In this document: in pieces, positions 2,986 through 5,517 of the stretch
How the letters are laid out: each line of letters opens with the position of its first letter
Position numbering within the stretch: position 1 is the stretch's first letter
NCBI GenBank assembly: GCA_049642725.1
Contig: JBARPC010000027.1
Span: 1,010-65,009, forward strand
Source: Minisyncoccales bacterium
GTDB taxonomy: Bacteria; Patescibacteriota; Minisyncoccia; Minisyncoccales; JAGMDC01
Length of the DNA: 64,000 bases
Direction: 5' to 3'
The notes under the pieces: model-generated
Databases searched by the model: none
What the model saw: the letters and a program-made list of their open reading frames with translations, nothing else
Told to the model about the DNA's origin: nothing
Program-made: the position numbers and the translations under genes

Positions 2986-5517
2986 ATGAATAACAATTCA
3001 GAAAAAGAAAAACCAAAAGAAAAAATAGCTGAAATTGGTTATATAAAGCCCAGAGAAATTACTGAAGAAATGAAAGAATCATATATTGGTTATGCTATGT
3101 CAGTAATTATTTCTCGAGCTTTGCCTGATGTCAGGGACGGTTTAAAACCAGTTCACCGTCGAATTTTGTATGTAATGCTTGAGGATGGATTAAAGCATGA
3201 TGCTAAATTTAGAAAATCAGCTAATGTAGTTGGTTTGGCATTGGCTCGCTATCATCCGCATGGCGACCAGGCAGTTTATGATTCCTTGGTGAGAATGGCT
3301 CAGGATTTTTCTTTGAGATACCCTTTAATTAAAGGCCAAGGAAATTTTGGGAGTATCGATGGGGACCCTGCGTCAGCCATGAGATATTCAGAAGCCAAGC
3401 TTTCAAAAATCGGTGAAGAAATGCTTAAAGATATTTCAAGAGATACTGTTGATTTTAGGGATAACTATGACGGCACGAGAAAAGAGCCAACGGTTTTACC
3501 ATCGCCGATGCCTCAGCTTTTATTAAACGGTTCTTTAGGTATTGCCGTAGGCATGGCTACTAATATTCCGCCCCATAATCTGTCAGAAGTGGCAAATGCA
3601 GCTATTCATTTAATTGATAATCCAGAGGCAACAACAGAAGATATTTTTGAATTTATTAAGGGGCCGGATTTTCCCACTGGCGGCATAATTTACAATAGAA
3701 AAGAAATCATTACTGCTTATTCCCAGGGTAATGGTCCTATAGTGATAAGAGGCAAAACAGAAATATCTGAAGATAAAAAAGGCAGGAACAGGATTTTAAT
3801 TACAGAAATTCCCTATCAGGTTCAGAAATCGTCTTTAGTGGAACAGTTTGCCAAGCTGGTTCAAGAGAAAAAAATCACTGGCGTTAAAGATATCAGGGAC
3901 GAATCAGACAGGGAAGGCATGAGAATTGTTATTGAGCTTCAGCGAGATGCTTTTCCCCAGAAAATTCTCAATCGGCTTTATAAATTTTCCGACCTTCAAA
4001 AGACATTTCATCTTAATATGCTGGCTTTAGTGGACGGTATTCAGCCAAAAGTTTTGTCGCTTGTAGAAGTTTTAAATTATTTTATAATTCACAGAAAAGA
4101 AGTAGTGACAAGAAGAGCCAAATATGATTTACGCAAAGCAAAAGAAAGGGCGCATATTTTGGAAGGTTTGCATAAATGCCTGTCAAAGATTGATGCGGTG
4201 ATTAAAACCATTAAGGCGTCGGCTAATCGGGAAGATGCGCTGAAGAATTTAATGAAAAAATTCAAGCTTACTGAAATTCAGGCAAACGCTATTTTAGAGA
4301 CAAAACTCTCTGCTCTGGCAAAACTGGAAAGAAAGAAAATTGAGGAAGAGTTGGCAGAAAAGGGAAAATTAATAAAAGAATTAGAATCTATTTTAAAAAG
4401 TCCGCAAAAAATTAAAGAGTTAATTAAAAAAGAACTTAGAGAAATAATTGAAAACTTCGGGGACGAAAGAAGAACTAAAGTTGTTGTTCAGCAAGTCGGC
4501 GAAATTGCTGAAGAGGATTTAATTCCCCAAGAAGAAACAATTATTACCTTAACGCAGGGCGGTTATATTAAAAGAGTAAATCCTAATATCTACAAAATTC
4601 AAAAGAGGGGGGGCAAAGGCATTATGGGAATGAAAACCATGGGAGAAGATATAGTAGAGCATTTTCTTTTTTGCCAGACCCATGATGAACTTCTTTTCTT
4701 TACTGATTCAGGAAAAGTTTTTAAAATTCCTGCTTATGAGGTTCCCGAGGGGACAAGGGTTGCTAAAGGCAGGGGTATTTTGAATTTCTTGGAACTTACT
4801 CCGCAAGATAAGATTTTATCCATTCTTCATTTTAAGAAAAATGGAAATCAAGAAAATGGAATGAAGTATTTAGCAATGGCTACAAAAAATGGTATAGTAA
4901 AGAAAACAGCTTTAAGCGAGTTTGAAAATGTAAGAAGGTCAGGTTTAATTGCTATTAACCTTAAAAAAGGAGATTTGCTTAGAAGTGTGAGTAGAACCTC
5001 TGGTCAAGACGAAGTAATTTTAATTACAAAAAAAGGACAGTCAATTAAATTTAAAGAAGATAATGTTAGAGTTATGGGCAGGACAGCTGCTGGGGTGACC
5101 GGAATAAGATTAAAAAAAGATGACGAATTAATTGGAATGGACGTTATTCACCCCGTTAAATTGTCCGCCGAAGGCGAACACCTCGCAAAGCGAGGATTTA
5201 ACAGGGTAAAAACACAAAATTATCTTTTGGTAGTAAGCGAGAACGGGTATGGGAAGAGGACTGATTTAAAAGAATACAGATTGCAGACAAGAGGCGGCTC
5301 TGGCATAAAAACAGCTAATATTACTGAAAAAACAGGAGATTTAGTTGCCTCTAAAGTTCTTTCTGGAGAGGAAGAAGATCTAATTGTTATTTCCAGAAAA
5401 GGCCAGATTATCAGAACTGCTATTGATTCTATTTCTATAATCAGCAGGTCAACGCAGGGCGTAAGAATAATGCGCTTAGATAAAGGAGATAAAGTAGTAT
5501 CAGGGGAATGTATCTAA
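2986..5517 (+). CDS. gyrA: DNA gyrase subunit A
   Basis: GyrA N-terminal signature ([36 protein letters not shown]) and C-terminal beta-pinwheel repeats. Confidence 0.97.

Follow-up and report, generated by a model that had tools for sequence, protein, structure and literature searches.

The locus analysed here raises the question of how a GC-rich, self-complementary segment came to lie in frame within gyrA, and what kind of sequence it is. The window, by which we mean the whole stretch of 64,000 nucleotides (contig JBARPC010000027.1 of assembly GCA_049642725.1, positions 1,010 to 65,009), comes from a Minisyncoccales bacterium, an organism within Patescibacteria, and is AT-rich (G+C content 33.7%). 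The GyrA it encodes is identical to the database protein 'DNA gyrase subunit A [Minisyncoccales bacterium]', and 20 of its residues (722-741) are encoded by a nested hairpin element. According to our analysis, this gyrA segment very probably belongs to a dispersed family of palindromic elements that are very short and non-coding in origin, and it would be translated as a tolerated 20-residue loop of GyrA. The family, a widespread group of ~60-nt double-hairpin palindromes, is apparently undescribed.

All the hairpin sequences reported in a preliminary description of this DNA were found where it had placed them (5151-5161, 5196-5206, 5166-5176 and 5181-5195), and the motif CGCC-GAA-GGCG at 5166-5176 proved to be the core of a longer hairpin 1 (5162-5180; Table 1). 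The outer stem of the window copy contains one C.A mismatch, with CCCC in place of CCCT of the family. The element folds as RNA with a minimum free energy of -26.6 kcal/mol (z = -4.83; none of 200 dinucleotide shuffles was as good) and as DNA with -17.1 kcal/mol (z = -4.92), and its folding energy is below the 0.5th percentile when every 60-nt window of the 64 kb is considered (-23.9 vs -22.5).

Table 1. Positions of gyrA, of the parts of its hairpin element, and of copies of a second hairpin family. Positions are those of the window unless another locus is named.
Feature	Position	Strand	Basis or remark
gyrA, host gene, 843 aa	2986..5517	+	ORF and translation; Pfam DNA_topoisoIV and six DNA_gyraseA_C repeats
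Putative insertion unit, 60 nt = 20 codons (CA + 56-nt core + TA)	5149..5208	+	TsaD comparison; core lengths of 2 mod 3; absence in L207, L208, L002 and L003; ends uncertain by a few bases
Outer stem 5' arm (terminal inverted repeat) CCCCGTTAAAT	5151..5161	+	Family consensus CCCTGTTAAAT
Inner hairpin 1, TGTCCGCC-GAA-GGCGAACA	5162..5180	+	One C.A mismatch
Inner hairpin 2, CCTCGC-AAA-GCGAGG	5181..5195	+	Perfect
Outer stem 3' arm (terminal inverted repeat) ATTTAACAGGG	5196..5206	+	
Second hairpin family, copy in the Hsp20 gene	8756-8790		Hsp20 gene 8401..8931, minus
Second hairpin family, copy after tRNA-Ser	61404-61449		
Second hairpin family, first copy in L012	L012, 1321-1355		
Second hairpin family, second copy in L012	L012, 3524-3558		

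That the segment is an assembly chimera or a sequencing artefact is vanishingly improbable. Nothing was found to speak for it, although an assembly error can in principle give rise to a palindrome. The Logan assembly of run SRR28062514, produced by an independent assembler, matches the window with 100% identity across 5,093 bp, the gyrA element among them, and therefore excludes the chimera that the preliminary description had wished to see checked. In addition, two separate metagenome-assembled genomes of a sister species (L084 and L085, identical) carry a related copy at the gyrA site, the same site holds related copies in three other assemblies, and the reading frame is intact.

The comparison of GyrA sequences was based on 240 homologues from a whole-protein search. 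The signature PVK...FNRV occurs in three of them, namely the window protein (P0121), the 92% identical GyrA of the sister species (P0122), in which a 21-residue segment occupies the loop, and a 75% identical protein (P0142) with the loop sequence HPVKSVRGGAAKPQFNRV. Hence the suggestion that about 20 extra residues are lineage-specific holds for this set, the residues being absent from 237 of the 240 homologues, and the segment was not found to be conserved in unrelated GyrA sequences. At 84-87% identity, the loop of the relatives reads KTQKVKEKTQN, KTQNIKEKTQN or KLKVKD. A search with the C-terminal domain returned partial proteins only, none above 600 aa, the nearest of which (70-71% identical) read IKP directly followed by KTENY with nothing inserted. 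The insertion is also absent from the relatives L207, L208, L002 and L003. In a Neighbor-Joining (NJ) tree calculated with the loop masked, the window protein and P0122 are sisters inside a clade otherwise without the element, and P0142 falls into a distant clade, the neighbours of which are also without it. This separation of the carrier lineages by element-free lineages favours two gains at the same GyrA loop, which would be the most economical reading of the tree.

At the nucleotide level, hairpin 2 is identical in the window and the sister genome L084, and hairpin 1 of the sister is a different perfect hairpin (TGTCCCGAAA-GT-TTTCGGGACA). The corresponding interior peptide differs between the two species (SAEGE vs SRKFSG). 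A further gyrA copy, in L086, has yet another interior, and the outer stem in L084 and L086 reads CCCTGTTAA[A/G]T / ATTTAACAGGG and is either perfect or contains a G.T pair. The copy would have entered gyrA in the common ancestor of the window organism and the 92% identical sister species; later, the window copy would have acquired two stem mismatches and the sister copy would have had its inner hairpin swapped.

The Pfam repeat 4 of the DNA_gyraseA_C series ends at residue 721, directly before the element-encoded residues, in agreement with the proposed location between two beta-pinwheel blades. When the C-terminal domain was modelled with AlphaFold2 (pLDDT 81.9, pTM 0.82), the 20 residues received a pLDDT of 48-61, with a short helix, between strands at 94-95; they are thus predicted, with low confidence, to be a loop that connects beta-pinwheel repeats 4 and 5. 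The landing site would be a surface loop, in which the 60-nt stop-free unit would be read as 20 extra residues forming a floppy loop or a short helix outside the fold. The basal length of the loop is ~7 residues in 80 species-representative genomes of Patescibacteria. Elsewhere the same loop is filled by in-frame heptanucleotide repeats, such as CAAAAAT x4, GAAAGTC x5, CCAATAA x4 and AAATCCC x4 (L009, L011, L014, L015 and L019), and a frequent loop peptide, KAQSSKLKAQSSKE, would correspond to (AAAGCTC)n by back-translation, as judged from protein and not from DNA. One homologue (P0125, 83% identical, 1309 aa) is annotated as intein-containing (Pfam PF14890); the window GyrA has no intein.

The ends of the gyrA element define a family, which can be written as (TTYA)CCCTGTTAAAT...ATTTAACAGGG(TRAA), with the TTYA and TRAA flanks being less strict. 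The core measures 47-78 nt, commonly 48-56 nt, the inserted unit being 4 nt longer. We scanned JGI metagenome contigs for CCCTGTTAAAT-N(25-55)-ATTTAACAGGG, and at least 120 contigs matched; the statistics on the family given here and below refer to the 122 elements among the matches listed. Although they lie outside the search pattern, the flanks are conserved (T 74%, T 82%, Y, A 73% for TTYA; T 75%, R, A 76%, A 66% for TRAA). The interiors are more stable than shuffled sequences (median z -2.65), and 85 of the 122 (70%) fold as exactly two adjacent helices. Triloops make up 72% of the loops, the commonest being TTT, GAA, TTC and AAA. These features, independent of the pattern used, indicate that the elements form a genuine family. 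In an in-register set of fifteen 56-nt copies, which was chosen from copies already folding alike and the outer stem of which was fixed by the search pattern, 99.5% of the cells are paired and 12 of the 14 inner pairs have changed on both sides, a value reached by none of 500 shuffles.

The sister genome L084 contains four copies in 22.5 kb according to a pattern search, one in gyrA and three in tsaD, among which are two identical 56-mers. Likewise, a 13-kb global alignment of the window with the syntenic L084 revealed extra segments in the sister tsaD that bear the ends of the gyrA element. In the window tsaD, the tandem repeats TTTGGAT x3 and TTTTTGC x2 are found at ~10212-10232 and ~10745, exactly where the sister has element copies. 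Looser copies of the family were recovered from L015 and L005 by pattern search. When the gyrA element and the window's further hairpin elements were compared by blastn-short with the window itself and with 83 loci, no relative of the gyrA element was recovered, and a relaxed scan for the ends revealed no further copy in the window (four matches vs 1.5 expected, three of them unstructured). No family copy was found in 2.9 million viral contigs.

A search with a doubled peptide profile returned only proteins of 32-76 aa, which are probably miscalled ORFs over element copies. Five of these matches are named by taxon, four as Patescibacteria and one as Ignavibacteria. The element-bearing contig L127 (Ga0265594_1002668) encodes large secreted-looking proteins and, from inspection of its ORFs by eye, does not resemble a Patescibacterium. 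The host range of the family may be wider than Patescibacteria, or such contigs may be mis-binned.

The closest relatives of the window copy among the matches are L104, L165 and L169. The L169 copy agrees with it at 51 of 56 positions, the differences being two stem bases and loop 1 (TTC vs GAA); the loop TTC is the complement of GAA on the same hairpin 1 stem. Hairpin 2 of the window is shared without change by L084 and L169. The copies in L104 (in pgk) and L165 (in uvrC) possess both stems of the window copy, in the opposite orientation and with other loops. These matches bear on the possibility that the hairpin arose on the spot, in a hypervariable and slippage-prone loop, by intra-strand template switching without any mobile element. 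Such an origin would agree with the loop being a hot spot, 5 to ~29 residues long among relatives and often filled by heptanucleotide tandem repeats or unrelated hairpins; with the similarity between the element ends and the host sequence at the empty site (AAG GTA AAA in L207, AAA GTT AAA in L208); and with the GAA/TTC loop flips and the hairpin replacement between window and sister, which look like template switching. However, the same 11-nt ends recur in pgk, uvrC, tsaD, many intergenic sites and at least 120 unrelated contigs, and the two inner stems of the subfamily recur as well. A match at 51 of 56 positions elsewhere is impossible by independent local origin; together with the presence of both stems in pgk and uvrC, it therefore rules out a purely local origin. 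Largely refuted by the metagenome contigs, this explanation is very improbable.

Of the 122 copies, 19 are located in frames that run without a stop for 150 codons or more, although many contigs are short. The core length is 2 mod 3 in 17 of these 19, compared with 56:20:46 for the remainders 0:1:2 in the whole set, and the two exceptions sit at gene ends. The frame encoding PVK...FNRV is used by 16 of the 17 in-gene copies; the third frame contains TAA in both ends. One subfamily occurs in genes in a single orientation, and its reverse would give AAA-TAA in that frame. No gene split by an out-of-frame copy was found among the matches. The copies present in genes have thus passed a filter that preserves the frame, which suggests that they are translated. 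The size of the inserted unit can be read from the TsaD alignment, in which the sister protein shows two clean 20-residue insertions relative to the window protein, HPVKSFASSKRKSEILFNRV (HPVK...FNRV), between conserved residues. From this it follows that the unit has 60 nt, 4 nt more than the 56-nt core, which explains the 2 mod 3 rule and places the unit in gyrA as given in Table 1. The host genes are of the housekeeping type and encode RNase J, PGK, PpsA (PEP synthase)/PPDK, SMC, YqeY, RmlD and MurD, as well as TsaD, UvrC (three copies in one gene), a PP-loop ATPase (TilS-like), MnmA, RsmH and Lgt.

This distribution also concerns the reading in which the 20 residues serve GyrA as a lineage-specific loop with a function, for instance that of providing extra basic residues for DNA wrapping, and the palindrome is incidental. 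The C-terminal domain of GyrA wraps DNA, the element-encoded peptide in this domain is rich in K, R and H, and the loop has been kept in two species that differ at 13% of the gyrA nucleotide positions. On the other hand, the small proportion of copies in long ORFs, the interior peptide that is not conserved between the sisters, the low confidence of the insert in the AlphaFold2 model, and the relatives at 84-87% identity that do without it all speak against a function of the peptide, and we regard this reading as extremely improbable. The insert in GyrA would be tolerated and not required.

Alternatively, the family might be a functional RNA motif and not selfish DNA, with the gyrA copy acting in the mRNA, for instance as an RNase III or other processing site, by stabilising the transcript or by pausing translation. 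In favour of such an element, the inner stems show strong compensatory variation; orthologous copies, e.g. those of L113 and L157 in yqeY, stay paired through double changes, and window and sister have diverged less in the element than at the flanking synonymous sites. Nevertheless, the pairing is nearly pure Watson-Crick and equally good whichever strand is read. Among 22 copies that lie within genes and have a known orientation, a small sample, the sense strand has 8 G.U pairs and the antisense strand 10, and the mean folding energy is equal. Read on the sense strand, the two mismatches of the window copy are C.A; on the antisense strand they would be G.U. Moreover, many unrelated genes as well as intergenic sites hold copies, which share no position relative to genes, the presence of copies varies between close relatives, and a comparison with Rfam gave no match to the element. 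An RNA function is accordingly improbable. The near-pure pairing on both strands, together with the loop flips and module swaps, points to palindromy being maintained at the DNA level and not by a function of the sense RNA.

For the spread of the family we infer transposition in trans. The conserved ends suggest a recognising enzyme, and mobilisation would be carried out by an enzyme reading these ends, possibly on a folded single strand. One candidate was considered in the sister: positions 826-1542 of L084 encode a 238-aa protein of the Y1_Tnp type (IS200-like), which has an HUH motif and on either side of which the hairpin ACGAAGGYCGGGCCTTCGT stands in inverted copies. This layout is that of a REP-associated transposase, and homologues were found in L020 and L056 only. 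As a mobiliser of the gyrA family it was rejected, since the flanking hairpin does not belong to this family and no homologue was found either in the window or on the loci that bear the element.

Several observations weigh against an insertion by a mobile palindrome family, or limit what can be said of it. No long element bounded by the family ends was found in 1.75 Mb of loci, and solitary ends outline no parent; nor was a Y1 homologue found on the element-bearing metagenome loci or in the window. The flanks form an inverted and not a direct repeat, and the filled and empty sequences are too diverged to place the ends to the base, so that no target-site duplication was derived. The interiors are too unlike for most copies to be recent products of one master, and structure-preserving divergence or an exchange of hairpin modules is needed. 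The covariation was obtained on a preselected set of copies. The gyrA copy is the sole member of the family in the 64-kb window, so that any activity of the family in this genome is putative. Outside hairpin 1, the element differs between window and sister at one of 37 positions, as compared with an identity of 87% over the whole gyrA (binomial p ~0.04), which hints at some constraint or homogenisation beyond pure neutrality. Finally, the two gains at the GyrA loop could instead be one old gain followed by many precise losses, or a transfer from gyrA to gyrA.

A more speculative account, to which we assign a low probability, is that the elements move as folded single-stranded DNA via an enzyme reading only the outer stem, and that the inner hairpins are continually rewritten by flipping, swapping or re-templating, both inside a copy and from copy to copy, as a self-diversifying palindrome; or else that a factor of the host or of a defence system binds the outer stem, and that the copies persist on this account. 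If the former were true, new peptide loops would be seeded in essential proteins across Patescibacteria.

As a dispersed family of translated palindromes, the gyrA family is closest in behaviour to the Rickettsia palindromic elements (RPE), which are likewise in frame and translated in housekeeping genes and have no known transposase (PMC10969869). RPE are dispersed palindromes in a small AT-rich genome and provide extra peptides at tolerated surface positions (PMC10969869). However, RPE are ~100-150 bp long and conserved family-wise in sequence and peptide, whereas the elements described here are ~60 nt long, with only 11-15-nt ends conserved and an interior that is hypervariable but structured. 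The gyrA family is thus set apart by size and ends, as judged from the description in a review (PMC10969869), and by its host, which belongs to Minisyncoccales and not to Rickettsiales, and membership in RPE was rejected. In architecture, the closest counterparts are the mitochondrial double-hairpin elements of Allomyces and other fungi, the GC clusters of yeast, and the repetitive hairpin-forming elements of sponges. These are short GC-rich hairpins or double hairpins in AT-rich genomes, located between genes and occasionally in protein and rRNA genes at variable sites; they are kept in transcripts, and their stems are conserved while the loops vary (PMC2800124). They are organellar and have other sequences, in contrast to the gyrA family, which is defined by a conserved AT-rich outer stem enclosing two hairpins.

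With the MITEs of bacteria (miniature inverted-repeat transposable elements, e.g. Correia, ERIC, RUP and the small dispersed repeats of cyanobacteria), the family has in common that it is short and non-coding and possesses terminal inverted repeats (PMC10969869). Many dispersed copies, polymorphism in presence and absence, and occasional in-frame fusions are also MITE-like (PMC10969869). Conserved terminal inverted repeats are present (CCCTGTTAAAT / ATTTAACAGGG), and so is variation between relatives, the tsaD copies of L084 being absent from the window; a parent element or transposase with the same ends was not found in the 1.75 Mb of loci. Unlike in a typical MITE burst, the interior is far more different between copies. 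To our knowledge, a size of ~60 nt is also smaller than that of known MITEs.

A likeness to the repetitive extragenic palindromic (REP) sequences, the REPIN and their REP-associated tyrosine transposases (RAYT) lies in the short palindromes that fold as single-stranded hairpins, and in the Y1_Tnp protein flanked by inverted hairpins in the sister. As far as the cited account goes, a conserved GTAG or CGTC tetranucleotide heads a 20-40-nt palindrome in REP (PMC3733652). Membership in REP/REPIN was rejected on the ends, which read (TTYA)CCCTG... and have no GTAG or CGTC head. A RAYT gene flanked by the repeat was rejected as well: the L084 protein is flanked by a different hairpin and scores 42.7 bits against an NCBIfam cut-off of 80 (REP_Tyr_transpos). 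The attC sites of integrons have core sites of the form 5'-RYYYAAC ... GTTRRRY-3', which form the base of a hairpin whose interior varies. In the present elements, GTTAAAT and ATTTAAC occur in the opposite order (5'-GTTAAAT...ATTTAAC-3') on both strands, and identity with attC was rejected. Palindrome-associated elements derived from IS200/IS605 have subterminal hairpins, no terminal inverted repeats, and a fixed target of 4-5 nt on the 5' side only. The family has two hairpins, but also clear inverted repeats, and both flanks are symmetrically conserved in the same copies. In the literature searched, the end motif occurred in no paper except in a coincidental primer, and none was found that deals with MITEs or palindromic elements of the Candidate Phyla Radiation or Parcubacteria.

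Patescibacteria have genomes of ~1 Mb, which are usually described as streamlined. The entry of 60-nt palindromes into essential genes (gyrA, tsaD, uvrC, pgk, murD, smc and others) would mean that selfish DNA persists in such genomes, and the palindromic family would be a source of lineage-specific protein loops. It would account for many of the odd low-complexity inserts and spurious small 'hypothetical proteins' in annotations of Patescibacteria. In addition, conserved ends combined with a hypervariable, always-paired interior could offer a tractable system for studying how palindromes spread and are kept up without an apparent transposase.

The preliminary description had assigned the gyrA element and three intergenic elements of the window (5529..5655, 6210..6285 and 52260..52412) to one family able to land both between and inside genes. 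Such a family does exist, but the three intergenic elements are not members of it: the family ends are absent from them, and they show no similarity to the gyrA element. With their extents taken as 5526-5658, 6204-6293 and 52255-52416, their stems are much longer (19-27 bp), AT-rich and of other sequence (GGGAATAYAACWTTTAGGA; GAAAACAAGATTTTTCAGTTGT; GAAAACCAAATTTTTCAAATTCT), and their interiors are C-rich and fold poorly. They are elements of a different kind, with only a loose architecture in common with the gyrA element, and could be another mobile family or structured RNAs. The element at 6204-6293 is a clean 90-nt presence/absence difference relative to the sister genome, and that at 5526-5658 has a sister orthologue with a different, still complementary stem sequence. 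The stems at 6212 and 52262 are alike (GAAAAC.AA.ATTTTTCA).

A second hairpin family has the form AAAAAT-CCCGCC-NNN-GTYCCGC-NNN-GCGGRAC-NNN-GGCGGG-CAAG, with compensatory changes (Table 1). It encodes PASVPPRGTTAGK in the Hsp20 gene of the window and PAFVPLRGTTAGK in the loop between repeats 4 and 5 of the L012 GyrA. The tsaD gene of the window (9738..10820, minus) contains at 10051-10110 a different double hairpin, which encodes PALKERCSPNKIGQQKTKQ and is absent from the sister; in the sister TsaD, a copy of the CCCTGTTAAAT family lies four residues upstream of this site. Two in-frame GC-rich hairpins are present in ligA (46..1830), the gene for an NAD-dependent DNA ligase, at 1195-1232 and 1567-1608. 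One encodes SLPRRKPKAFLRG and would, by the ligase consensus, split the motif LEGFxEKS; the Pfam domain HHH_2 does not begin until residue 419. The second is situated in the linker that precedes the BRCT domain, and its positions 1572-1595 (24 nt) are absent from the sister. In L002 (2542-4333), the DNA ligase is called as two ORFs (516 and 90 aa), with the BRCT domain in the second. Upstream of the tRNA-Leu at 8285, positions 8231-8282 form a 52-nt double hairpin (CTGCCC-TTC-GGGCAG and TTCACGG-TTA-CGCCGTGAA) that is absent from the sister. The window also carries two tRNA-Ser(tga) genes (61312-61399 and 61753-61841), 440 nt apart, each of which is followed by the GC-rich sequence CGCCTCGCCGAAG.

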